UHGV virus genome: UHGV-0174372
Reading direction: 5' to 3' (one strand)
Length of the DNA stretch: 35,240 nt
Origin: a virus
Shown here: positions 1,287 to 19,460 of the stretch, in pieces
How the letters are laid out: every line of letters starts with the position of its first letter
How positions within the stretch are numbered: the stretch's first letter is position 1
The notes under the pieces: generated by a model
What the model was told of the DNA's origin: nothing
Database searches by the model: none
Seen by the model: the letters and a program-made list of their open reading frames with translations, nothing else
Position numbers and translations under genes: made by a program

Positions 1287-4241
1287 TTAATCGGCGGTAG
1301 TATCGTGACGGTTATAGACAATAACGATATCGTCTTTAAGTCCGATGTCGCCGCTGGCCTCAATGTCCAGCTTTTTACCTATAGTTGCTCTTGATGCTTC
1401 GGAGACAACGGTAAAGAGACGCATGTCTTTATCTGGCCCCATGGCATCGAGTTCAACACCGATAATAGACGCATCGAGGGTTTCACTCAACGCATTACCG
1501 ATTTCTGTTGCAGAGATTGTTAGATGATTACCCAAGTAATCATTGATAACCTGAGACGTTTTCTTACGAATCTGCGTTAAGAGCTCGGTGTTATTACGGT
1601 TAGCAGCTGTTAGGTAATAACGCACGGTGAACTGGTTTTCCGCAGGGACAGGTGTCACTACCCCGTCCTCGGTACGGGCGTCGATATACCCCATTGTTGT
1701 AATCGGCACAAAGTAACCTTCGGTACGTTCTAACAGCATAGGCTTCAAAGTCGGTAGTATTACTGTAACGTAGTTAACGATGTTTTCGATAACTTCATTC
1801 AGATACGATTTTGCAGAAGGCGTCGTCGCGAATTTATATCGCGCATCGAATACCGCCATCTCACTACGGAATTTGATAGAACGCGATTTCGCAATTTTCG
1901 GATTGCCGAACTCGTCTTTAACTAAGTCTCCCTCACGATGTAGGACGATCTGTTCTCCAGCCTCGTCGAGTTTAGGATCACCTTTACGATGCTCGTACGT
2001 AATCTGAAGTGGCGGCGTGCGACCTGCGTCGTAGGTGTAGATTGGTACACCGTTCTCATCGCGTTTAACCACATCGATTTCCCACGTTGCCATCACGTCT
2101 TTTTCGTAATACTGGTAGTTAATGCTGTCAGTAACAGCACGCGCTTTACGCCAGTAGTACGTCATTGCTTTACCCAATTCGATTTTGAAAATCTCGTGAG
2201 TAATACCAATAGCATCGCGTGACGGGGCAGTGATTAACGCATCCATTTCCGCACGTTCGTAATTACCAGGATAATAACCGGTGCAGCCGTAGAACAGGTT
2301 GAAGTCCGTTGTCAGCGGTACAGGCGTTTCCGTGGGTGTGCTACTACTAATGCGTGTATTCGTTAGCATTAGTTCGTCGTTACGGTCAACGTCTAGGTTG
2401 GTTTCCAGCAGGAATTCCCATACGCGTTCACTACCCTGTTTACCGACTAACGTACCGTTGATATACGCTAAAGTGTTGTCTGCATTACGTGGACGGAACG
2501 ATAGCTGTGCAAAAACTTGATCGTCAGTCAGTGCTTGATAAGGTGCCTCTGACTTCGTTACGGTGCGCAATACATAACCGGCTTCGGTCTTTTCGATAGT
2601 GTAGTCGGCTGTTACCACACTGAGTTCCGTGCTTACGTTAGTGGCAATAAAGCGTTTGGAGTTTAACGTCGGTTTATCTAATTGATAAATACGAACGTCA
2701 ATGGCTTTATTGTTGATATCCACAACGTAATGGAATGGTGTAAAGAGATAACGATTAGCGTTGGCCGCGTTAATCAAATCTTCTTTACGCATGGTTTTTG
2801 CCAAGACCGTCATTTCCGCATCAACCGTCAAGCTGGTGTCGGTGAACCGATAAAGTGTGTCAGGAAGAATCGTCAGGCGATTACCGTTAACCTTTACCGT
2901 CGGTAGATTAACCAATTCATTCCAGGAGAAATAGAACGGTGCCGTGATCGTCCCGATGGGAGAACTGACATTGGGAATTGTCGATTCGAGCATCGGTGCC
3001 GTTAAGAAGTATGTACGGCTAGTAACATAGTCGTTTGGTTTCGACAACGTTAGATCGTAGTCAGAAACCGTTGCTTCTAATTGTTTCTCCGTTACAGGGA
3101 GTTTTCGTGCACCTACCGCGTTATTGACCACACGTGTACGCAAATCTTCGAACGTGAGCTGGCTACGACCACCTGACAACATTTTACCTGCTTTTGCAGC
3201 CATCTGTTTGATGGAAAAACTCTTAATCGGGTTAACGTAGTTTTCGTCGTATTCACCGTTTAAATCACGCAATGTAAACGTGTATTCGTCAGACGGATAA
3301 GCTGAGATATCGACACTTAAAGGCCCTAAGGTCGTGTAGATATCCATACGAATTTCGCCGCTGACCAAATTCTTTGCCATGTAGATCGAGGGGATAGTAC
3401 ACCGTATAACACCGTCACCGACCTGGATTAACGCGGTTGGGGTGTTGGGGTCGTAAACGTCACGACTGTGCGTATGCTGAATTTCAACCCACTTGTTATC
3501 GTTGGTTGATTTCATCCACACCCTTACGTAGAAAAATTTGTTAGTGTAATGGCGGGTCATGACAAAGGTATTTTTCCCCGCAACGGTGTCACTTTCGTTC
3601 TTCACCGCATACTGCATAACTGGGATATGGATTGCCAGTAGTTGCGAGGCCGTGGTGTTAGACGATGTCAATTCCCAATCCAGCGCATTCGTCGATACAG
3701 GAGAAATAGGTGACTGCGTTTCGGTAATCCAAAGAACCTGAAATGCCGGGTTTTCATTGGTGCCGTAAGGAAGTACCCTGATTTCAATCGGGTACTGGAT
3801 GGCAAAGGTGTAACCTGACACCGTGAAAACTGTGTCACGTGGGATAACAACCTTACGCACACCCGCTATTTGTAAAGGGTACGCCTTGGAGATTAAGCTA
3901 TCAACATCGATTAATAACAACAACTCGGTGGTTGAAGGTTGGGCGAACACATCAACGTAGTCCACATCGGACATATGTCGGAACAGGTCATCGTACGTTT
4001 GCGCCATCGATGGAAATGTTTTTGGCACTGATTCTTGCAACCCCATAAGCGTTGCATGGCCCAACATTGTCCCCATTTCCGCCAAATAAACAACAGGGTC
4101 TGTTGGGTCACGTAACACTATTTGGCCTTCGGCGTCTTCTACATCCAGAAGCTGATTCAAGAGCAGTGTTTGCATCGCTGCCGGATGGTGGGCAAACAAC
4201 AATATGTTCTTTGCCAAAGTATCGTAAGTCGTAGAACTCAT
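1287..4241 (-). CDS. hypothetical large phage protein (984 aa), probably virion-associated
   Basis: Long uninterrupted ORF; its ATG (4239-4241) shares one nucleotide with the upstream gene's TGA (TGATG overlap), implying translational coupling. No motif recognised by eye. Confidence 0.8.
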   Translation of the reverse strand: MSSTTYDTLAKNILLFAHHPAAMQTLLLNQLLDVEDAEGQIVLRDPTDPVVYLAEMGTMLGHATLMGLQESVPKTFPSMAQTYDDLFRHMSDVDYVDVFAQPSTTELLLLIDVDSLISKAYPLQIAGVRKVVIPRDTVFTVSGYTFAIQYPIEIRVLPYGTNENPAFQVLWITETQSPISPVSTNALDWELTSSNTTASQLLAIHIPVMQYAVKNESDTVAGKNTFVMTRHYTNKFFYVRVWMKSTNDNKWVEIQHTHSRDVYDPNTPTALIQVGDGVIRCTIPSIYMAKNLVSGEIRMDIYTTLGPLSVDISAYPSDEYTFTLRDLNGEYDENYVNPIKSFSIKQMAAKAGKMLSGGRSQLTFEDLRTRVVNNAVGARKLPVTEKQLEATVSDYDLTLSKPNDYVTSRTYFLTAPMLESTIPNVSSPIGTITAPFYFSWNELVNLPTVKVNGNRLTILPDTLYRFTDTSLTVDAEMTVLAKTMRKEDLINAANANRYLFTPFHYVVDINNKAIDVRIYQLDKPTLNSKRFIATNVSTELSVVTADYTIEKTEAGYVLRTVTKSEAPYQALTDDQVFAQLSFRPRNADNTLAYINGTLVGKQGSERVWEFLLETNLDVDRNDELMLTNTRISSSTPTETPVPLTTDFNLFYGCTGYYPGNYERAEMDALITAPSRDAIGITHEIFKIELGKAMTYYWRKARAVTDSINYQYYEKDVMATWEIDVVKRDENGVPIYTYDAGRTPPLQITYEHRKGDPKLDEAGEQIVLHREGDLVKDEFGNPKIAKSRSIKFRSEMAVFDARYKFATTPSAKSYLNEVIENIVNYVTVILPTLKPMLLERTEGYFVPITTMGYIDARTEDGVVTPVPAENQFTVRYYLTAANRNNTELLTQIRKKTSQVINDYLGNHLTISATEIGNALSETLDASIIGVELDAMGPDKDMRLFTVVSEASRATIGKKLDIEASGDIGLKDDIVIVYNRHDTTAD

Positions 4242-8255: not shown

Positions 8256-9527
8256 ATGGCAAATTTCGCAAAAACTCGCGCCGCTCGTGAATCGATGGAA
8301 GCGGCCGATGAAGTAATCGACGGTATCAGCAACGTTGAACCGGCAGAAGAGAACCTGGACGTCCAACTTGCGGACGTAGCATCTATCGACGGTCAGCTCG
8401 ATCAGCTGGAAACCGACGGTGAAACCCTGGCTGCCGATACCGAGCGTACTGAAGACGCTATCGAACAGGCGGAAGAAGCCGTTGCTAACGGTGAAGAAAT
8501 GCCGGAAGAAGCGGTTGCCCTGCACGAAGTGGCACAGGAATCCATCGCACGTCGTTGGTGCCTGGAACGTACTAAACTGGCTCGCGAATCCTATCGTCGT
8601 GGCCGTGGTATGACTGCTGCTGCCCAGGAAGGTTGGAAAGAAACCCTGAAAGATCTTTACGATCGTTTCATTCAGTTCTGTAAAGAAGTGATTGCGAAGA
8701 TCAAAGACCTGAAACTGAAATATTTCAATGTCGGTAAGACCGCACAGAAACGTGCGAAGAAATATCAGGAAATGCTGCGTAAGCTGGGCAAACAGAAGAA
8801 AGATGAAATCTCTGGTGGCTTTATCACCAAGCTGTCTATCGAAGGTAAATTCGATGCTGCTGGCTCTATCGCTATTGCGAAAGAAGTTACCGCCGGTAAA
8901 GCTAAAGGTTCCATCGGTGCTCTGGAAAAACAAGCTGGTGAAGCTGTGACTGCCGTTACCAAAGGTGACGATGACGCATTCAAGGCAATGCGTGGTGATC
9001 AGCCGGTAGAACTGTTTGGTAAAGCTGCTTCTAAACTGCACACTCTGCCGAACTTTGAAAAAGGCGATGCGTCTAAACTGCTGGCGCTGCCGGGCAACGC
9101 TTACATTCAGGCTGGTACTAAAGAACTGGCTGGCGGTCACAAGTTCACTGCAATCGCGTTCATGAGCACCGGCGACGCTTCTGACGATAAAGACGTGAAA
9201 ACTCCGTCTGTTTCTGAAATGGCTGGCGCTGCTTCTGCTCTGGAAGCGATCGGTAAAGGCTTCGAAGCCGTACTGAAAGATTTCCGTGCCTACGATTCTG
9301 AAATCGTGAAGCTGCAACAGGCTGCTGAGAATGCTGCTAAGGCGCTGAACAACGAAAAAGACGATAGCAAGTGGGATGGCCTGCGTAACGCACGTCAAGC
9401 TGCCGATTGGTCTGTTAAGAACTACCAGACCCTGAACCGCGCAGTTAGCTATGTTGCTAACACCGTTATTAGCGGTCTGAATGGCTACCTGGGTGCTGGT
9501 ATCGGTGCTTACGAAAAATCTAAATAA
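8256..9527 (+). CDS. high-abundance virion protein, paralog A (423 aa); candidate protease-processed internal head protein
   Basis: ATG 8256 with aaggaaa Shine-Dalgarno; strongly biased codon usage (ctg/cgt/ggt/aaa/gaa); N-terminus MANFAKTRAARES; internal AQESIARRW and ARESY; C-terminus GLNGYLGAGIGAYEKSK shared with the next gene. Confidence 0.85.
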   Translation: MANFAKTRAARESMEAADEVIDGISNVEPAEENLDVQLADVASIDGQLDQLETDGETLAADTERTEDAIEQAEEAVANGEEMPEEAVALHEVAQESIARRWCLERTKLARESYRRGRGMTAAAQEGWKETLKDLYDRFIQFCKEVIAKIKDLKLKYFNVGKTAQKRAKKYQEMLRKLGKQKKDEISGGFITKLSIEGKFDAAGSIAIAKEVTAGKAKGSIGALEKQAGEAVTAVTKGDDDAFKAMRGDQPVELFGKAASKLHTLPNFEKGDASKLLALPGNAYIQAGTKELAGGHKFTAIAFMSTGDASDDKDVKTPSVSEMAGAASALEAIGKGFEAVLKDFRAYDSEIVKLQQAAENAAKALNNEKDDSKWDGLRNARQAADWSVKNYQTLNRAVSYVANTVISGLNGYLGAGIGAYEKSK

Positions 9528-9571
9528 TCGTTTAGATTCGTAGTTCCGTACAGTTCTTGAAATAAATCATC

Positions 9572-9592
9572 AGGGGAACGTATTGTTCCCCT
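9572..9592 (+). other. GC hairpin without U-tract between paralog genes (possible attenuator or RNA processing site)
   Basis: 8-bp stem aggggaac/gttcccct with a 5-nt loop, sited in the spacer just upstream of the paralog B ribosome-binding site; no T-run follows. Confidence 0.3.
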
Positions 9593-9609
9593 TAGAGGAA
9601 AAGCTTAAA

Positions 9610-10875
9610 ATGGCGAATTTCTACAAAAACAAAATTGCTCGTGAGTCTATGGAGTCTACTTCTACTGTAGTTCCAGACGGCATCGAACTGCCAGCAGAAT
9701 CCGTAGAAGGCACTCTGGCCGATATCGAGCATGACACCAAACCGATCGAAGCTCTGGACGCTGACGCTGAACTGCTGGCAGAAGACGGTGACGAAACTGA
9801 CGCTCAGCTGGATGTTCTGGACGAAGCTCAGGCTGCTGCTGACGGTGAAGGTGCTGGCGAAGACGGTGAAGAACCGATGGACGCCGAAGAAGATATGCCG
9901 GACGACGCTGCGACTGCGCTGGACGTTGCTCAGGAATCTATCCGTTCTCGTTGGAACTTCGAACACCGTTCTTCTGTTGCTCACGAATCCTACGGTTCTC
10001 GTAACCGTCGTCAGGTTGCTCGTGAATCCCTGTGGGAAGACATCAAAGCCTTCCTGGGCCGTATTCTCGATTGGCTGAAAGAACAAGGCCGCAAACTGAA
10101 AGATCGCTGGCTGAAATTCCACAACCAGGGTAAATCTATTCAGGCACGTGCTAAGAAATACGATGAAGTTATTCGTAAGCTGGGCAAACAGAAGAAAGAT
10201 GAAATCTCTGGTGGTTTCATCAAGTCTCTGTCTATCGACGGCAAGTTCGTCGGTGATAATATTCCGAAACTGAAAGGTATCCTTAACCAGGTCTCCTCGT
10301 TCTATAGCGCTAAGATGCCTGCCATGGCCGCTAAAGCTGCTGAAGTGGTTTCCGATGTTACCAAAGGTAATGGCGTTAAAGTTGAAAAACTGAAAGCCGA
10401 CTTTACCGAACTGTCCAAACAAGACAGTCTCCAAAACTTCAAGCTCGGTAACATGGCGGTGAAAACCGAGTATGACAACGAAGGCGGCTTCAGCTCCACC
10501 TTTGTTGAAGCTGAAAACAGCGTTGAAACTAGCGTGAAAACTCCGTCTGTTGGCGAACTGGCCAAAATCAATGCTCTCTTCAACGAAGTGGGTAAACAGA
10601 TTGAGAAGAACGTTCAGGATTACCGTAAAGTCGAAAGCGCGCGGAAAACCTTTGAAGATAATATCGATAAGCTCCTGAAAGAAGTCGATAAAGTTAAGAT
10701 CGACGAAAAACCGGAACTGACCGAAGGTGTACGTGCTGCCCGTCGTTTCATCACCAGCGTTAACCAGGGTCTGTCTCTGGGTGAGAAGGTTATTGCTTCT
10801 ACTCAGAAACACCTGGCCGGTGGTCTGAATGGCTACCTGGGTGCTGGTATCGGCGCTTACGAAAAATCTAAATAA
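9610..10875 (+). CDS. high-abundance virion protein, paralog B (421 aa)
   Basis: ATG 9610 (the track start at 9583 is a TTG) with gaggaaa Shine-Dalgarno; N-terminus MANFYKNKIARES; AQESIRSRW, AHESY, ARESL; a 41-nt tract identical to paralog A (10174-10214 vs 8778-8818) and a near-identical 54-nt 3' end. Confidence 0.85.
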   Translation: MANFYKNKIARESMESTSTVVPDGIELPAESVEGTLADIEHDTKPIEALDADAELLAEDGDETDAQLDVLDEAQAAADGEGAGEDGEEPMDAEEDMPDDAATALDVAQESIRSRWNFEHRSSVAHESYGSRNRRQVARESLWEDIKAFLGRILDWLKEQGRKLKDRWLKFHNQGKSIQARAKKYDEVIRKLGKQKKDEISGGFIKSLSIDGKFVGDNIPKLKGILNQVSSFYSAKMPAMAAKAAEVVSDVTKGNGVKVEKLKADFTELSKQDSLQNFKLGNMAVKTEYDNEGGFSSTFVEAENSVETSVKTPSVGELAKINALFNEVGKQIEKNVQDYRKVESARKTFEDNIDKLLKEVDKVKIDEKPELTEGVRAARRFITSVNQGLSLGEKVIASTQKHLAGGLNGYLGAGIGAYEKSK

Positions 10876-10893
10876 TCCCTGATTGTTTAGTAA

Positions 10894-10940
10894 GAGAACC
10901 ACCCTGTAATGGGGTGGTTCTCTCTTTTCTTTTTTTTTCG
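10894..10940 (+). terminator. intrinsic terminator
   Basis: 11-bp stem gagaaccaccc/gggtggttctc followed by a long T-run (ttttctttttttttcg). Confidence 0.7.
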
Positions 10941-10950
10941 ATTAAAATAA

Positions 10951-10978
10951 TTTTCAGATATATATTACCTAGGTGAGA
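10951..10978 (+). promoter_or_regulatory. candidate phage early promoter (TATATTAC core), copy 1
   Basis: ttttcagatatatattacctaggtgaga; a 27-nt tract identical to 19206-19232, placed just after a terminator and about 50 nt upstream of the next ATG. Confidence 0.45.
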
Positions 10979-11028
10979 ATACTGTGTAATCTCTTTACGA
11001 CTTGTTTATTACGTTTAGGAGAAATATC

Positions 11029-11670
11029 ATGAGCCGCATTAATTTAACCGATTTTGTTGATGGTGTTGTGTCTATGGATAAAGGTGTCGTTACGATGGTG
11101 GCACCGAATAGTAAAGTTGTTACTTTAAATCCGGTAGAACTGATTTCTATTTCTACCTGGTTGCGCTTACTTTCTGGTAAGAAACCTAAAGACCAAGCGA
11201 AGGGTGGCTTATTAGTTGGTACACGTGAGTTTGTTTTCAAAGACATAACCCAAGATAAACTGGACAGCATTGCTAAAGAACTGAACGGCAAGCATAAAAC
11301 TCGCGACATCGGGAGTGCCGAACATGACGGTGTAACGTACCATGCATTTCTTGATAGTCACGTAGCATTGCGTGAAAAAGAAAATGGGTTGTACGAATCA
11401 GTTAGTTTCTTTCATTTAATCGCACCAACAGAAAACGAAGCTGTGTATGAAACCGTTGAAAAATCGGCGGAAGCTGTTATGGAAACGGTGTCAGAACTTA
11501 TAGAAGGGATGAAAAGAATCCCACGTGTGTTGAAAGTTACTGATGGGGCTTTCGATTGTTTTAAATTATTACCCCTAATAGCTAGTAAAGAATACGAAGA
11601 TGAGAACACCTTCGGACTATTCGAAATTAGTCTTTCGGAAGCAGTTGTTACTTTCTTTGAAGATTTATGA
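11029..11670 (+). CDS. hypothetical early protein (213 aa)
   Basis: ATG 11029 with aggag at 7-nt spacing (the track start at 11002 is a TTG); more AT-rich codon usage than the structural genes; followed by a terminator. Confidence 0.75.
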   Translation: MSRINLTDFVDGVVSMDKGVVTMVAPNSKVVTLNPVELISISTWLRLLSGKKPKDQAKGGLLVGTREFVFKDITQDKLDSIAKELNGKHKTRDIGSAEHDGVTYHAFLDSHVALREKENGLYESVSFFHLIAPTENEAVYETVEKSAEAVMETVSELIEGMKRIPRVLKVTDGAFDCFKLLPLIASKEYEDENTFGLFEISLSEAVVTFFEDL

Positions 11671-11674
11671 GATA

Positions 11675-11705
11675 AAAACCCTCTACGGAGGGTTTTATTT
11701 TTTCG
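11675..11705 (+). terminator. intrinsic terminator
   Basis: Stem aaccctc/gagggtt with tacg loop followed by ttattttttcg. Confidence 0.6.
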
Positions 11706-11723
11706 ACCTTTAGGAGAATAGAA

Positions 11724-12275
11724 ATGAACAAATTTAATATTTTAGACGCTGAAGTCGTATCTGAAACCAGTTTACAGCAGGAAATCTTTCGCATTCAGTT
11801 TGGCGATAAAACCCTTATCGTCCCACGCCCGGTAATGATTGGACTGGCTATTTTTATTAACTGTGCGCATTGTAATGGTTCTCAACTCTCCACGCTCACT
11901 TACAACAATTACGAATTCTATATTCCGGAACACCTGGAATATAATCGCTTCATTGCTTTACGCCCGTTCTACAAGTTTATGTTAGACGCAGGTTATTCTA
12001 CACTGACGAAAACGTACATTCGTGATTATTCGAAGCTGGAAACGTTCTATCGTCGTCGCGGTTATCGTGTTCCTGAGCCTATTGACGGTTTTCAAACACG
12101 CGTTGTATTACTTAAACCGCTAGAAAAAGAACTGGCTTGCTATAAACTTGATATTGAGCAGAAGTTACTGCGTGAGGATTTGTTGAATTTATACAATCAG
12201 CTTTCAGTTGTACCGAAAGCCACAGTAGAAAACATTCTACCTGATTACGGAATTAGACAATATCAGGAAGGTTAA
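11724..12275 (+). CDS. hypothetical early protein (183 aa)
   Basis: ATG 11724 preceded by taggagaa. Confidence 0.75.
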   Translation: MNKFNILDAEVVSETSLQQEIFRIQFGDKTLIVPRPVMIGLAIFINCAHCNGSQLSTLTYNNYEFYIPEHLEYNRFIALRPFYKFMLDAGYSTLTKTYIRDYSKLETFYRRRGYRVPEPIDGFQTRVVLLKPLEKELACYKLDIEQKLLREDLLNLYNQLSVVPKATVENILPDYGIRQYQEG

Positions 12276-12276
12276 A

Positions 12277-12582
12277 ATGAAACTCAAAGCCGATGCGATA
12301 TGTGTTGTTAAGTTGCCGGAAAGTAATGTGGTGTACTGCGTAAAACGGCTAGACATTCGATTACTGATACCGAGACTTAATGAACCTGGTTGGAATGGGG
12401 ATTTGATGATTCCACTGATCAGGCCACTCCCTACGAACGATGGCAATATAACGCATTTGCATATGGAAGCCAAAGGGCGGTACATCACCGTTTATCATTT
12501 AGCCGATCAGTACAAAACGACCCGGTATACCCGAAAAGATTTTATACGCCATTTAAGAGGCTCACTGGAGATAAAGAAATGA
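12277..12582 (+). CDS. hypothetical protein (101 aa)
   Basis: ATG 12277 with aggaagg Shine-Dalgarno, 1 nt after the previous stop; its TGA overlaps the DHFR start (ATGA). Confidence 0.6.
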   Translation: MKLKADAICVVKLPESNVVYCVKRLDIRLLIPRLNEPGWNGDLMIPLIRPLPTNDGNITHLHMEAKGRYITVYHLADQYKTTRYTRKDFIRHLRGSLEIKK

Positions 12583-13115
12583 CAATTACAGTTTCGATGA
12601 TAGCTGCTGCTGGGTTGAATAACGAAATTGGGAAAGACAATAAACTGCCGTGGCGTATTCCCGATGACTTAAAGAATTTTAAGGCTCTTACGTCAGGTAA
12701 AGTTATTGTGATGGGAAGCAAGACATGGGAATCGTTAGGGTTTAAACCCCTGCCTAATCGTCACCATGTCGTGTTGACGAGAAGACCTGGTGGTGTGCCT
12801 GAAATCGATGGGGTGCTTAACCTTAAGGGTGAAATGGGGTCGATTATTGAATTCCTCAAAACCGAGGTTGAGAAAAAGGGTTATCCTAAGGAAATCTTTA
12901 TTATCGGCGGCGCAGAAATTTACCATCAGGCGTTACCTTACGTGGATAAGATTTACTTGTCACGCGTAGAAGTTAAAGTCGATGGTGCAGATGCGTTCTT
13001 TCCTGAAATCGATCGTAACAAGTTTAGACTGGTTTATAACTTAACGCACGCTTCCAAACCGGATAGTGATGTTCCACGTTGGCATTATCAGATTTGGAAA
13101 AGAGATGGGCACTGA
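12579..13115 (+). CDS. folA: dihydrofolate reductase (178 aa)
   Basis: Translation carries the DHFR fingerprints as I recall them from E. coli FolA: MIAAAG..IG..LPW..P.DL..FK near the N-terminus, VIMGSKTWESLG, PLPNR, IIGGAEIY and YLS..EVKVDGDAFFP. GGAG lies 8 nt upstream of ATG 12579. Confidence 0.9.
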   Translation: MTITVSMIAAAGLNNEIGKDNKLPWRIPDDLKNFKALTSGKVIVMGSKTWESLGFKPLPNRHHVVLTRRPGGVPEIDGVLNLKGEMGSIIEFLKTEVEKKGYPKEIFIIGGAEIYHQALPYVDKIYLSRVEVKVDGADAFFPEIDRNKFRLVYNLTHASKPDSDVPRWHYQIWKRDGH

Positions 13116-13401
13116 GTTTGTAACCTTAGAAAAGCTCTTTTTAGGTAGAGTTGCGAAAGGGAAAATAGCGCGCTTCACCTGGTATCCTTCCTCTGTAAAG
13201 CACGCCTTTATACGTCGTTTACATCAAGAGAAAAGCGTCAGGTTGATCTTGATAGTGTTGTTTGAAAACAACCGTGGACTGTTGATTAACAATCAGCGTT
13301 TTGCGGCAGAGATTTGGGCAACCACCTCTGGGGGCGAGGAAGCGTCTGTTGGCTTCGCTAACGACGAGATTATCTTTGAAGGTATACCTTATCTGTTATA
13401 G
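13105..13401 (+). CDS. hypothetical protein (98 aa), start uncertain
   Basis: ATG 13105 preceded by ggaaaagag; overlaps the last 11 nt of DHFR; ends at TAG 13399-13401 just before a terminator. Confidence 0.45.
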   Translation: MGTEFVTLEKLFLGRVAKGKIARFTWYPSSVKHAFIRRLHQEKSVRLILIVLFENNRGLLINNQRFAAEIWATTSGGEEASVGFANDEIIFEGIPYLL

Positions 13402-13414
13402 GTAGGATAAACGT

Positions 13415-13450
13415 AAAAGGGGACTTCGGTTCCCTTTTATTTTTTTTTCA
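13415..13450 (+). terminator. intrinsic terminator
   Basis: Stem aaaaggggac/gttccctttt (one G-U pair) with ttcg loop, followed by a T-run of at least nine. Confidence 0.7.
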
Positions 13451-13490
13451 TTTCGCGCCTGTGATATGACTATAACGAAGGAACAAGCCA

Positions 13491-14999
13491 ATGCAACAGT
13501 ATTTTGAAATTCCGTCGTTAGACGCGACCATTCGCAAACCAATAATCGATGGTGTTATACAACGTGTACTTAATGAGTCTGGTATTGATACAGCAGCGGT
13601 TGTTTTCCTCGATGAATTCAATAGCGCCCATCAGCCGGATTCTACTTTAGGTGATGGTACAGAAGTAGAGTACAGTTCACCTGAAAAGGTTTACGTTGAA
13701 GTAGAAGAAGAACGTGATGAGTGGGCAAGAATCAACCGTCAGGTTGGTCAGCAGGCTGAACCGTACTTCTTCGAGAATTCCGTCGATCAGGTACGCGCCT
13801 GGCCCGTTAGAACGATGTATAACGTAACGGTAACGTTACGACGTACCAGTGCCTCACGTGATGAGTTATTGCGCTGGACAAACCGTTTAGACTCGTTAGT
13901 GGACATGGGTCGTTATTCGACCATGACAGAGTCAGAAGCGTTCTATTATATCCCTAAACCCGCGTTAAAGTTGTTGAATGCCTGCTACGTTGCTGCAGGA
14001 ACACGAGTACCAGCGTTTGACGATTTTAAAGCCTATTTGAAAGCGTATTTTACGCCCGACGTATTTCGTGCGGCCAATGTTGCCGGGGGGCAGGAAACCA
14101 TTGCGGTACGTTACGCACCTACGCGTTTAGAAACGGTATATGACGTTCAAACACCGGCCTGGGATAAAGATGAAAACCACTGGGAAGCAACGTTCGTTAT
14201 TCGTTTCTCTTATCAGCGCCCTGAAGAGATTGTGGTTTCGTATCCGTATATCATCAATCAGACACCACTGCCTGATGAATATTGGCCAGAGATAGACCCA
14301 CCGTGGGTATCTAACGAAGAACTGGTGTATCGTCATCCGCAACAAAAGAATCTCGATTCAACCTGGTGGATTAACGAAACTCGTCAGTATATTCGTCTCC
14401 CGTATTTGTTATCTCCCACGGAACAGTTCCATCGTACGCACTCCCCGTTTAAAGATAAACTCTTACCGATTTTCGGTACAGATGTTGTTTTTGAACCGGA
14501 CAACATGTTATCGCCGAAGGTGATGTCTACGGAAGATTTACCTTACGAATGGAACGAAGCGTTGCTACCGTATATCGAACATTGTCGTGCGATCGACCCG
14601 ACAGGACAGACGGGCGTTTTCCGTATCGAGTTGTTCGAAGAGGGGCAGATTATCGAACCGCGTTTCTACCATTGGGAAGGAAATACGTTTTCGCTTAAAG
14701 GTCGTGACCTGAAAGTAAATAAGGGTTATTACTTAACCGAGTCGGTCATGTTTGACTGGCGTGGAATGAACCTCTGGCCATTACAGTTATATCCGCAGGC
14801 AGCGAAAGTATTAATTGAGTGGTTGTTCCCGAAATGGGACGTTCCTGATTGGTGGTGGGATAAGCCGGTGTTACCGCCGAGTGTTATCGATGACATTAAT
14901 AAACTGATTCCGAACGTAGAAGCCCGTGTGTTATTGACGGTGCTGAACTCGACCATTATTACCATGCGAGGAACAGAGAATGCTCAAAGCAAAGCGTGA
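13491..14999 (+). CDS. hypothetical phage protein (502 aa), probably structural
   Basis: ATG 13491 with aagga at 8-nt spacing; long ORF. Confidence 0.8.
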   Translation: MQQYFEIPSLDATIRKPIIDGVIQRVLNESGIDTAAVVFLDEFNSAHQPDSTLGDGTEVEYSSPEKVYVEVEEERDEWARINRQVGQQAEPYFFENSVDQVRAWPVRTMYNVTVTLRRTSASRDELLRWTNRLDSLVDMGRYSTMTESEAFYYIPKPALKLLNACYVAAGTRVPAFDDFKAYLKAYFTPDVFRAANVAGGQETIAVRYAPTRLETVYDVQTPAWDKDENHWEATFVIRFSYQRPEEIVVSYPYIINQTPLPDEYWPEIDPPWVSNEELVYRHPQQKNLDSTWWINETRQYIRLPYLLSPTEQFHRTHSPFKDKLLPIFGTDVVFEPDNMLSPKVMSTEDLPYEWNEALLPYIEHCRAIDPTGQTGVFRIELFEEGQIIEPRFYHWEGNTFSLKGRDLKVNKGYYLTESVMFDWRGMNLWPLQLYPQAAKVLIEWLFPKWDVPDWWWDKPVLPPSVIDDINKLIPNVEARVLLTVLNSTIITMRGTENAQSKA

Positions 15000-16350
15000 T
15001 AAACCGTCTTCTTTCGAACCGGTGGAACGCCCGATACCTGAGTTGAATAAACCGCAAGACGGTGTGAAGGAAACCACGAACGTGGTGACACAACCGACAC
15101 GTACAACGGTGACGGATTTAGAGCGTATACCGAAACAGTATCTGATGAAGTACCTGGAAGGGTCTTCCTGGACAGTGGATTTCTTTAATTTCCTGAAAGG
15201 GCGTAACGACGCGAAGAAATTCTTCGATTCGAAGGTACTTACACCTGACCAGCAAGTAGAGAAAATCATCGGGTTAGAATTGCGTGTCACCACGCCGTTA
15301 GATCGTTCTCAGGACACGACAAACAAAACATTCACCATGTCCGGTGCCGCAACAATGGCGAACTCGGTGATTCCCAACGAAGGGTGTTTTTTCGTTGCAC
15401 CGATTGGAGACGGACGGTTCGCGTTGTTCAACGTCACGAACGTTGTGCGGATGTCCAATAACAAAATTGCAACGTATAACATTGAGTATACATTGCTGTT
15501 TGAAGTTGATCCAGAAGTTGCAGAAACCATTCGTCGTTGTACGGTTCGTGAGTATTATTACGTTTCTGAACGTGCCTGGACGGGCGGTGATACGTTACTG
15601 ACACCGAAAGAATACCGTGCGTTTTTGAAGGTCGTTGATGCGATTGCGGATATTGAACAGACTTACGTAAAACGGTTTTACGATGGGGAAACGGCAACGT
15701 TGCTTTTCCCGCACGATCGTCACAGCGATGGGTTGCGTGGTCGCGCGTACTACGATGTGTTCTTAGCACAGTTTGTACGTTCTGTAGGCTTACGCACCGT
15801 TGGTAAAGATATTCAAATTTATCCGCATCCACCAATGCGTGTGGAGGATATTGAAACGGTCTGGACAGCGTTGTTAAATCAATCGCCAACGTTCTTAGCG
15901 GATTACAAACGTGATTCCAGTGTCTGGCAGGTAAAAACCTTCCGTACGATGCAGCATCGAAATTCTGTGACCTGGTCATTAATTTCGGATACCCGATTCT
16001 TTACCGATGAATTAAAACCGGGCTATGGGATGGCGCAACGTTTCCCTGGACAGTGGCCGAAGTGGACGGAGTTTGAACCGGTTGAAGTGGAGAACTATCG
16101 GGGTAATGAAGGTGAATCAATCCCTGCATTTCTACCACTGACTTACGAACCGTATTTGTTAAGCCCAACGTTCTACGAGGGCTCGTACAGTTCGTTATTA
16201 GAATACGGTTTATATCTCTATCTGAATAAACGCCCACTGTCAACGGTAATTGCATTACGGTTGTTTGAAGAAGTTTACCGTTTGCCGAAGGATGCGCAAT
16301 TCTATTACATTCCGATGGTGTATTTGTTGTTACGGTATGCGAGGGATTAA
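14980..16350 (+). CDS. hypothetical phage protein (456 aa)
   Basis: ATG 14980 with gaggaa Shine-Dalgarno; overlaps the previous gene by 20 nt. Confidence 0.8.
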   Translation: MLKAKRDKPSSFEPVERPIPELNKPQDGVKETTNVVTQPTRTTVTDLERIPKQYLMKYLEGSSWTVDFFNFLKGRNDAKKFFDSKVLTPDQQVEKIIGLELRVTTPLDRSQDTTNKTFTMSGAATMANSVIPNEGCFFVAPIGDGRFALFNVTNVVRMSNNKIATYNIEYTLLFEVDPEVAETIRRCTVREYYYVSERAWTGGDTLLTPKEYRAFLKVVDAIADIEQTYVKRFYDGETATLLFPHDRHSDGLRGRAYYDVFLAQFVRSVGLRTVGKDIQIYPHPPMRVEDIETVWTALLNQSPTFLADYKRDSSVWQVKTFRTMQHRNSVTWSLISDTRFFTDELKPGYGMAQRFPGQWPKWTEFEPVEVENYRGNEGESIPAFLPLTYEPYLLSPTFYEGSYSSLLEYGLYLYLNKRPLSTVIALRLFEEVYRLPKDAQFYYIPMVYLLLRYARD

Positions 16351-19090: not shown

Positions 19091-19205
19091 CCTAAACGCC
19101 ACACAGAAGTCATTTCTCCATTAAGACGACTAATTACCCTTCAAAAAGAAAATTGCGTCAGAATGCGTTTTAGAGCGTTCTAGAGGGTATATGGATTCAA
19201 AAAGA

Positions 19206-19232
19206 TTTCAGATATATATTACCTAGGTGAGA
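19206..19232 (+). promoter_or_regulatory. candidate phage early promoter (TATATTAC core), copy 2
   Basis: tttcagatatatattacctaggtgaga, identical to 10952-10978; 47 nt upstream of ATG 19279. Confidence 0.45.
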
Positions 19233-19278
19233 GTTTACGTAATACTCATTTATCGAATACCTAATTAGGAGTTATATC

Positions 19279-19392
19279 ATGATTTCTGTAAAACACAAAA
19301 AAGCTATCTTCGCTGTTGTTATCGCTGTTGTTCTGGGTTGCCTGTACCTGGATATCGACAAAGGCTACGACACTTGCATCGACAACGGTAAT
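19279..19392 (+). CDS. small membrane peptide (37 aa), not in ORF track
   Basis: aggag lies 7 nt upstream of ATG 19279. Hand translation gives MISVKHKKAIFAVVIAVVLGCLYLDIDKGYDTCIRQR: a basic N-terminus then a 16-residue hydrophobic helix. Flanked by the promoter-like element and a terminator. Confidence 0.4.
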
Positions 19393-19430
19393 TCCGTTGC
19401 ACAGTGCACTGGTCGTGGTTAATGTATAAG

Positions 19431-19460
19431 GCACCTTCGGGTGCCCTTAATTTTTTTATT
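19431..19460 (+). terminator. intrinsic terminator
   Basis: Stem ggcacc/ggtgcc with a tight loop, followed by cttaatttttttatt. Confidence 0.6.

Follow-up and report, generated by a model that had tools for sequence, protein, structure and literature searches.

We analysed a cluster of five open reading frames (ORFs) built around a dihydrofolate reductase (DHFR) gene at positions 11029-13401 of the viral genome UHGV-0174372, a stretch of 35,240 nucleotides (nt) referred to here as the window. In the reading that we favour and hold to be probable, this cassette is an early-gene island within the late structural region of a jumbo phage that represents a new SPN3US-like lineage: it would be transcribed as a single early unit with a partial stop after the first gene (o1), the four genes that follow (o2, o3, DHFR and o5) would be translationally coupled, and the DHFR would serve a thymidylate synthase (ThyA) encoded by the same phage. 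The five ORFs, the coordinates of DHFR and of the whole set, the two overlaps at the ends of the DHFR gene, the flanking terminators and a promoter-like element had been listed in an earlier model-made description of the DNA (hereafter the sequence-only reading), and all of them are present as described there.

The DHFR cassette and its proposed role in thymidylate supply

The five genes lie on the plus strand. The first, o1 (11029-11670, 213 amino acids), encodes an acidic, hypervariable protein with an isoelectric point of 5.0. It is followed by o2 (11724-12275, 183 amino acids, phrog_12369), which is conserved and has no assigned role, by o3 (12277-12582, 101 amino acids, phrog_9893), a small conserved protein, by the DHFR gene (12579-13115, 178 amino acids, FolA type) and by o5 (13105-13401, 98 amino acids), an orphan gene restricted to the lineage. 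Good or acceptable ribosome-binding sites precede all five, that of o1 being an AGGAG located 8 nt 5′ of the ATG. From o2 onwards the genes are packed stop to start: a single nucleotide separates the o2 stop from the o3 start (TAAaATG), the o3 stop falls within the DHFR start in a 4-nt overlap (...aaATGAca...), and the o5 ATG lies 11 nt ahead of the DHFR TGA stop, giving an 11-nt overlap with the DHFR 3′ end. It is on this packing that we base the proposed translational coupling of o2 to o5. Gene overlaps are frequent in this genome (others occur at 4241, 14980-14999 and 16891), so a lone overlap is unremarkable; what deserves attention is the conservation of the o3/DHFR overlap across genera, described below.

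Purifying selection on DHFR and o5, together with the presence of homologues of o1, o2 and o3 in other phages, leads us to regard all five ORFs as real genes and not chance ORFs, as the sequence-only reading had assumed for the neighbours of DHFR. Compared with two relatives at 80-86% nucleotide identity (contigs L005 and L006), the ratio of non-synonymous to synonymous substitution rates is 0.07-0.08 for DHFR and 0.11 for o5 in frame, where 32-35 of the ~50 differences affect third codon positions; in the other two frames of the o5 region the ratios are 1.2-2.2 and 5-9 stop codons appear. Homologues of o2 were retrieved from 40 phage records and those of o3 from 23 database clusters. Two longer gene models were discarded: a DHFR ORF beginning at TTG 12390, as the FolA alignment begins at residue 5 of the product of ATG 12579, and an o5 start at GTG 13066 or ATG 13069, as ATG 13069 is lost in L005 and L006 and ATG 13105 is invariant.

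The product of the fourth gene looks like a complete and functional enzyme of the FolA type. Its residues 5-160 cover positions 2-145 of the 159-position Pfam profile PF00186 (DHFR_1) with E = 8.7e-46 and 156 bits, against a cut-off of 25; it also matches phrog_316 (E = 4.5e-53) and, in the PDB, 155 DHFR sequences at E < 1e-10 (best E = 2e-29). In a BLASTP alignment the protein is 33% identical to E. coli FolA. The FolA residues I5, A7, I14-G15, W22, D27, L28, F31, K32, T46, R57, I94-G95-G96 and Y100 are kept: D30 of the phage protein aligns with the catalytic D27, and I8, A10, L31, F34, R61, I109 and Y115 are retained pocket residues. The replacements of M20 by L and of T113 by S (S128) are conservative. 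The elements that bind reduced nicotinamide adenine dinucleotide phosphate are aligned as well (MGSKTWES/MGRHTWES and IIGGAEIY/VIGGGRVY, with W25 corresponding to W22), and the phage enzyme carries an insertion of ~12 residues within positions 65-106. Since the catalytic and cofactor residues are present on the FolA alignment, the identification as DHFR made in the sequence-only reading stands. As for the acquired trimethoprim-resistance Dfr families of NCBIfam, none reached its cut-off: among the 25 families listed of 31 matched, all fell far under their own thresholds, the best being DfrA51 with 107 against 322 bits.

No thymidylate synthase was found in the window, either by family scans of the large ORFs or by tblastn with E. 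coli ThyA, which bears out an absence already remarked upon in the sequence-only reading. In the relatives the enzyme is encoded elsewhere: SPN3US ThyA is gp037 (PF00303), ~139 kb from its DHFR, and the nearest relative of the window, a contig with a 93-99%-identical cassette, has a 64%-identical ThyA ~125 kb away. A published comparison reports thymidylate kinase alongside DHFR and thymidylate synthase in SPN3US-like phages (PMC6614189), and the latter two enzymes co-occur across jumbo phages (PMC7824862). The earlier suggestion that the unassigned neighbours of DHFR might include a thymidylate synthase complement did not hold up: they have no Pfam or NCBIfam match, the models of o2 and o3 are small beta-sheet and helix folds unlike ThyA or ThyX, and the location of ThyA in the relatives speaks against it too. 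More generally, scans of Pfam, PHROG and NCBIfam recognised no nucleotide-metabolism family among o1, o2, o3 and o5.

The combination of a phage DHFR with ThyA is the textbook way for large phages to secure deoxythymidine monophosphate (dTMP). In the host cytoplasm, following standard folate biochemistry, the DHFR would regenerate tetrahydrofolate from the dihydrofolate released by the phage ThyA, and this cycle would sustain dTMP synthesis for a genome of ~220-240 kb. In T4, the adjacent genes frd (DHFR) and td (thymidylate synthase) encode early enzymes of the dTMP cycle. The present system would resemble that of T4 in having an early FolA-type DHFR of phage origin that works with a phage ThyA. 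It differs in that ThyA is located >120 kb from DHFR, and in that DHFR is flanked by small unassigned proteins and would be transcribed by a phage polymerase.

Phage lineage and the o3-DHFR pair

A sensitive DNA comparison aligns the window with SPN3US and its relatives at ~70% nucleotide identity over positions 9000-16000; megablast of the cassette against phage records returned the promoter region only. We assign the window to a new lineage of SPN3US-like jumbo phages of ~240 kb. The surrounding genes are late structural ones and encode the tail tube, two internal head proteins, the head-tail joining protein and the major head protein, while a DnaB-like helicase and a polymerase subunit are found further on from the cassette. 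We infer that the cassette forms an early-gene island inside this late region.

Four contigs of the IMG/VR database are relatives of the window. Two of them (L003 and L004) are near-identical in the cassette, with 91-99% protein identity, and the other two (L005 and L006) are moderately diverged. The o2 type of L005 and L006 is also found in many Salmonella enterica assemblies, which indicates Salmonella or a close relative as the host. Homologues of o2 and o3 (P0002, P0004, P0016, P0027 and P0028) were likewise encountered in many Salmonella enterica assemblies, one cluster being present on 142 contigs, of which the longest measures 230 kb. Assemblies of bacterial isolates thus contain such jumbo phages with some regularity, via a carrier state or contamination.

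The gene order is shared by Seoulvirus, Erskinevirus, Wellingtonvirus, Machinavirus and the clade of the window, that is, by at least five genera: two internal-head-protein genes, an optional o1-like gene, an o2-like gene, an o3-like gene, DHFR, variable small genes and a 500-amino-acid gene. In eight of eight loci the o3-family gene and DHFR overlap by 4 nt, the overlap being ATGA in seven of them and GTGA in SPN3US once its start is corrected. Every other junction varies, with 1 to 48 nt between o2 and o3 and -11 to +52 nt between DHFR and the next gene. The o3-DHFR pair thus stands as the invariant core in a slot whose content otherwise turns over fast. The correction concerns ACQ60_gp208, the SPN3US DHFR: the annotated ATG, 24 nt downstream, drops the first beta-strand, which is restored by a GTG overlapping the gp209 stop (MKLSIIVAMDRNNAIGK; L001 5511-5535, corresponding to 58138-58162 of NC_027402.1). 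The annotated start is thus probably too short.

Counterparts of the cassette are the SPN3US locus from ACQ60_gp211 to gp206 and those of the Erwinia phages Asesino, phiEaH2, Wellington, Caitlin and pEa_SNUABM_29. They occupy the same position, from the internal-head-protein genes to the 500-amino-acid gene, and have homologous o1 (27%), o2 (36-47%), o3 (~30%) and DHFR (44-53%) with the same 4-nt overlap. On the other hand, the clade of the window has o5 where these loci have the unrelated gp207 and gp206 families, and the internal terminator, which follows o1 in the window, is placed between the o2-like and o3-like genes in SPN3US, pEa_SNUABM_29 and Wellington. The paper on the essential genes of SPN3US makes no mention of DHFR or of the cassette genes.

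Similar arrangements exist outside this group. The DHFRs of 201phi2-1 (gp3, similar to phiKZ gp4) and of Xanthomonas phage LucasX (LUCX_272) are ~40% identical to ours and come last in a compact run of small genes; that of LucasX overlaps the preceding small gene by 4 nt, and that of 201phi2-1 starts directly after one. However, the small genes upstream are unrelated to o1-o3, BLAST and hhalign having both led us to reject such a kinship. In Derbicusvirus the slot (CR5, L042 4842-6425; Phobos, L043 4263-6423) contains 3-4 small proteins and neither o3 nor DHFR, and ThyA is present in these phages. Two of the slot proteins are mutual paralogues (hhalign 96%) and distantly like the N-terminus of o1 (36-43%), and the slot seems to be a nursery of diversifying small early proteins.

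Probable promoter, terminators and proposed transcription of the cassette

Upstream of o1 we identified a probable early promoter, a 39-nt plus-strand element (10940-10978) with the core ATATATTACCTAGGTGAGA at 10960-10978. A second copy at 19194-19232 is 90% identical over the 39 nt. The element occurs in the same position at eight related loci from three lineages (SPN3US, pEa_SNUABM_29, Asesino, phiEaH2 and the four IMG/VR relatives), Wellington and Caitlin having degenerate matches only. Its exact 19-mer core (ATATATTACCTNRGTGAGA) is present in 29 IMG/VR stretches, and 28 of these instances lie in SPN3US-like sequence; related contigs carry 2-5 exact copies each, and the 35-kb window has two copies of the element. 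With a single exception among the 29, the core is located 45-70 nt 5′ of a co-oriented Shine-Dalgarno site and ATG, in many cases immediately past a terminator, and the succession of terminator and promoter is found in the relatives as well. The extended consensus reads gATTAAAAAnATTTCAGATATATATTACCTAGGTGAGA (window positions 10940-10993 and 19194-19250; loci L011-L039).

The core is followed by a small hairpin on the plus strand (10975-10993; GAGAATAC-TGT-GTAATCTC), which is weak in the window copy (-4.3 kcal/mol). Most of the 29 other promoter instances have a comparable hairpin directly after the core. Its 5′ arm starts with an invariant GAGA, and the stems vary in sequence from one instance to another (for instance GAGATTAC/GTAATCTC, GAGATTC/GAATCT and GAGAGTTAA/TTAACTCT), which suggests that selection acts on the hairpin structure itself. 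It might belong to the transcript as a 5′ leader or contribute to recognition of the promoter.

In jumbo phages that encode multisubunit RNA polymerases, the virion polymerase recognises an AT-rich motif that is conserved and lies around -10 of the early transcripts (PMC7598289), and the mapped early promoters of phiKZ (PMC8244752) are in keeping with this AT-rich -10 class. Because the conservation, dispersal and position of the 10940-10978 element match this description, we read it as probably a phage-specific early promoter used by the virion RNA polymerase. The early-type promoter proposed in the sequence-only reading thus appears to behave as one of this class, by its recurrence and its upstream, co-oriented position (PMC7598289). 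As in phiKZ, the conserved AT-rich element is dispersed and heads operons that are usually closed by intrinsic terminators (PMC7598289, PMC8244752); unlike in phiKZ, it has a sequence specific to SPN3US-like phages (ATTTCAGATATATATTACCTAGGTGAGA) and is usually accompanied by the small hairpin. A literature search for TATATTAC returned nothing informative, and one for an SPN3US infection time course nothing usable.

Two further sites were noted in this connection. The second promoter copy would drive a 47-residue ORF (MISVKHKKAIFAVVIAVVLGCLYLDIDKGYDTCIDNGNSVAQCTGRG, 19279-19422), followed by a terminator at ~19428-19456. The start of this ORF, which is also seen in the related contigs L022 and L023, resembles a signal peptide, and the sequence VVLGC resembles a lipobox; the product is thus a candidate small lipoprotein of the early phase, involved for example in superinfection exclusion. 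Just 5′ of the 502-amino-acid gene, GTGATATGAC(TA) at 13461-13470 is kept in most genera examined, with equivalents in L001, L002, L005, L007 and L010, and is degenerate in Wellington. It contains TATG, the reported core of phiKZ late promoters (PMC7598289), and may be a late promoter that restarts transcription past the cassette.

Three plus-strand terminators delimit the cassette and divide it. The left one (10893-10935, hairpin 10893-10923) has a 13-14 base-pair stem, a CTTTTCTTTTTTTTT tail and a folding energy of -23.2 kcal/mol, and ends the internal-head-protein gene 9583-10875. The right one (13413-13450, hairpin 13413-13440) has a 12 base-pair stem, a UUCG loop and T9 (-16.8 kcal/mol), and a hairpin with a T-run is found at the equivalent of this boundary in six of the six other loci folded. 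Between o1 and o2 lies an internal terminator or attenuator (11675-11703, hairpin 11675-11696) with a 9 base-pair stem, a UACG loop and ATTTTTT, which at -13.7 kcal/mol is the weakest of the three. Seven terminator-like sites occur in the region, against 4.1 expected; the three described here have the longest plus-strand stems and each comes right after a stop codon. The internal terminator is kept in L003-L006 with a compensatory A-T to G-C change in the stem. SPN3US, pEa_SNUABM_29, Asesino and phiEaH2 are without a hairpin at the o1-o2 position; in SPN3US, pEa_SNUABM_29 and Wellington a terminator is found one junction later, between the o2-like gene and the o3-like gene. When 10800-13600 was scanned against Rfam, the sole match (rsmX) was at chance level. 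Of the single operon bracketed by terminators that the sequence-only reading had described, the brackets are therefore in place, but the terminator after o1 had been overlooked; it weakens the one-operon picture, which is not established.

Under the single-unit reading that we favour, the virion RNA polymerase would start near 10975 soon after injection of the DNA and transcribe o1. Some transcripts would end at the weak internal terminator, and the remaining ones would run through o2, o3, DHFR and o5 as far as the right terminator. Coupled translation would then allow the four proteins to be made together.

Other repeated motifs were observed in the window. The sequence TCGACC(A/T)TTA is found at 11703-11712 and 14949-14958, ~20-30 nt 5′ of o2 and of the 456-amino-acid head-tail joining gene; it was considered as a second promoter and rejected, not being enriched in the window. 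A terminator-like hairpin (AAAGGGGGTG...CACCCC) with similar flanks is present three times between 20436 and 21190, at intervals of 402 and 323 nt; the region resembles a series of small duplicated units that all end in this terminator.

The small proteins and their possible relation to DHFR

The proteins that accompany DHFR have few recognisable relatives. We found no Pfam, PHROG or NCBIfam family for o1; o2, o3 and o5 have no Pfam or NCBIfam match, and searches with them against PDB sequences gave nothing significant. Judging from these searches, o1, o2, o3 and o5 are small proteins restricted to the lineage or the phage group. The AlphaFold2 model of o3 is compact and confident (predicted local distance difference test, pLDDT, 86; predicted template modelling score 0.76), with the succession beta-beta-alpha-beta-beta-beta-beta-alpha. 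Its best PDB structure matches are weak and comprise DUF4176 type VII secretion chaperones, then Whirly, Pur-alpha, MRP and several immunity proteins, so that the predicted fold appears to be without a clear PDB counterpart; against predicted viral structures, Foldseek returned only orthologues from the same phage group. For o2 the model is of moderate quality (pLDDT 70), its N-terminal domain being good, and both o2 and o3 may be built from beta4-alpha units. The hhalign probabilities (26% for the 70 N-terminal residues of o1 against those of o2, 2-5% for o2 against o3, 36-43% for o1 against Derbicusvirus 057) are only suggestive of paralogy among o1, o2 and o3. Net charge is not conserved in the o3 family (-3 to +8), and the o1 family is consistently acidic. 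In the word-indexed homologue search, o2 alone gave two matches, and alignments were needed as queries.

We take o5 to be a genuine orphan gene. It is 82-96% identical in the four relatives and has no match in phage records, in Pfam (even at E = 10) or in the PDB. An exhaustive HMMER search of 1.84 billion representatives produced one true 50%-identity cluster (82% identical) and two repeat proteins with inflated scores. The match of o5 to P0045 (E = 1e-12) was rejected, since a single 27-residue similarity to an FN3-like repeat (hhalign probability 63%) is counted 11 times in it and inflates the score; it leaves a hint of a beta-sandwich fold. Weak hints of CyaY were also rejected as sub-threshold.

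The left half of the cassette evolves differently from the right half. The o1 protein is 27% identical to SPN3US gp211 and 37% identical to its L005 counterpart; in L006 only a remnant is left, inside a 67-residue ORF that follows the same leader. Between the window and L005/L006, protein identity is 78% for o2, 54% for o3, 85-89% for DHFR and 82-84% for o5. At the nucleotide level, identity falls to 48-72% over ~11000-12580 (o1-o3), against 80-95% in the flanks. Differences at third codon positions are commoner in o2 (100 of 184) than in DHFR (56 of 179), a pattern that relaxed constraint alone would not readily produce and that suggests an exchange with some more distant lineage; the left half looks like a mosaic exchange. 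In addition, the G+C content of o1-o2 is 0.40 compared with 0.46 for the window.

Uneven divergence was also observed between the paralogous internal-head-protein genes upstream (8256-9527 and 9583-10875): their 56-nt 3′ ends (9474-9529 and 10822-10877) are 98% identical and the rest is much more diverged, with further similar stretches at 8715-8853 and 10111-10249. The near-identity of the 3′ ends may reflect gene conversion, or else a strong constraint acting on the GLNGYLGAGIGAYEKSK at the C-terminus.

Several considerations weigh against the single early unit proposed above. The class of the promoter, its start site and the read-through of the internal terminator are all deduced from the DNA, and that terminator could separate o1 from o2-o5 completely, a division that would need an unrecognised promoter. 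In such a two-unit arrangement, which we consider possible but rather unlikely, o1 would be monocistronic and early, ending at 11675-11703, and o2-o3-DHFR-o5 would be transcribed from a separate promoter that cannot be recognised, for instance a middle one served by a non-virion polymerase, so that DHFR would appear later than o1. The conservation of the hairpin and T-tract past o1, with the compensatory change in the stem across relatives, is what one would expect in that case, and the terminator placed between the o2-like and o3-like genes of other genera makes internal stops a recurrent trait of the cassette; moreover, TCGACC(A/T)TTA is conserved across genera ~20 nt before the o2 start, and phiKZ-like middle and late promoters are hard to predict from sequence (PMC7598289). 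However, the hairpin at 11675-11703 is the weakest terminator (-13.7 against -17 and -23 kcal/mol; T6 against T9 or longer) and is missing at this place from SPN3US and three of the Erwinia phages, the early promoter motif does not recur in the o1-o2 interval, and the TCGACC motif is without enrichment in the window.

The other objections concern the tie between DHFR and its neighbours. Overlaps of 4 nt are common in phages, as LucasX and 201phi2-1 illustrate, so tight junctions are no proof of a functional link, and the sharpest step in divergence falls precisely at the o3/DHFR junction (from 54% to 85-89%), which argues against tight co-adaptation. It is close to an even call, in our opinion, that o1, o2, o3 (and o5) are unrelated to folate and are accessory proteins for host takeover or anti-defence, expressed early from the slot in which DHFR also lies; on this view the overlaps would reflect genome compaction only. 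The divergence trough over o1-o3, the poor conservation of o1 in one close relative and its decay in another, the low G+C content of o1-o2 and the acidity of the o1 family agree with this proposal, and so do the Derbicusvirus slot, with its distantly o1-like proteins and neither DHFR nor o3, and the DHFRs of other jumbo phages that abut or overlap unrelated small genes. In addition, host-directed functions are believed to abound among the genes that such phages express early (PMC5312081). Accessory proteins aimed at the host are also easier to reconcile with the rapid turnover of o1-o3, and with the loss of o1 from one relative, than are partners in core metabolism. Yet the o3-family/DHFR overlap is the one junction that does not vary in eight loci from at least five genera, o3 and DHFR are jointly absent from the Derbicusvirus slot, and an anti-defence role has no positive support, no search of PADLOC or other defence-related families having been made. 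These same observations, namely the strict overlap (ATGA, or GTGA in SPN3US) and the joint presence and joint absence across genera, are those which would be expected if the o3 family were a dedicated partner of DHFR made in fixed proportion, as a regulatory or scaffolding subunit or as a translation regulator, with o5 in a similar lineage-specific role at the 3′ end. The confident, compact o3 model is compatible with this idea, its weak PDB matches being small protein-binding chaperones and nucleic-acid-binding beta4-alpha folds. On the other hand, the spread of charge in the family does not indicate a conserved nucleic-acid-binding role, and a recombination or divergence boundary runs through the o3/DHFR junction; we judge a dedicated partner improbable. 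The stronger version, in which the phage DHFR depends on the o3 family as its obligate partner or regulator, held at a fixed ratio by the stop/start overlap, is in our estimation more doubtful still; such a two-component DHFR system has not been described for any phage or cell.

As a best guess, o1, o2, o3 and o5 would be accessory early proteins, with o1 and probably o2 acting on host or phage partners, and the o3 family would be the only candidate link to DHFR, by its position. Since the annotations of SPN3US and its relatives already show a DHFR here, the single early unit serving the phage ThyA, which we continue to favour, adds a lineage and not a new idea. The useful results are the corrected start of the SPN3US DHFR, the o3-DHFR pair as an invariant core and the orphan gene o5. 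The definition of a probable early promoter with its usual hairpin would be usable for predicting early genes across SPN3US-like phages. Finally, if the o3 family did prove to be a partner of DHFR, it would be an accessory of a new kind for an enzyme that has been studied in great depth.

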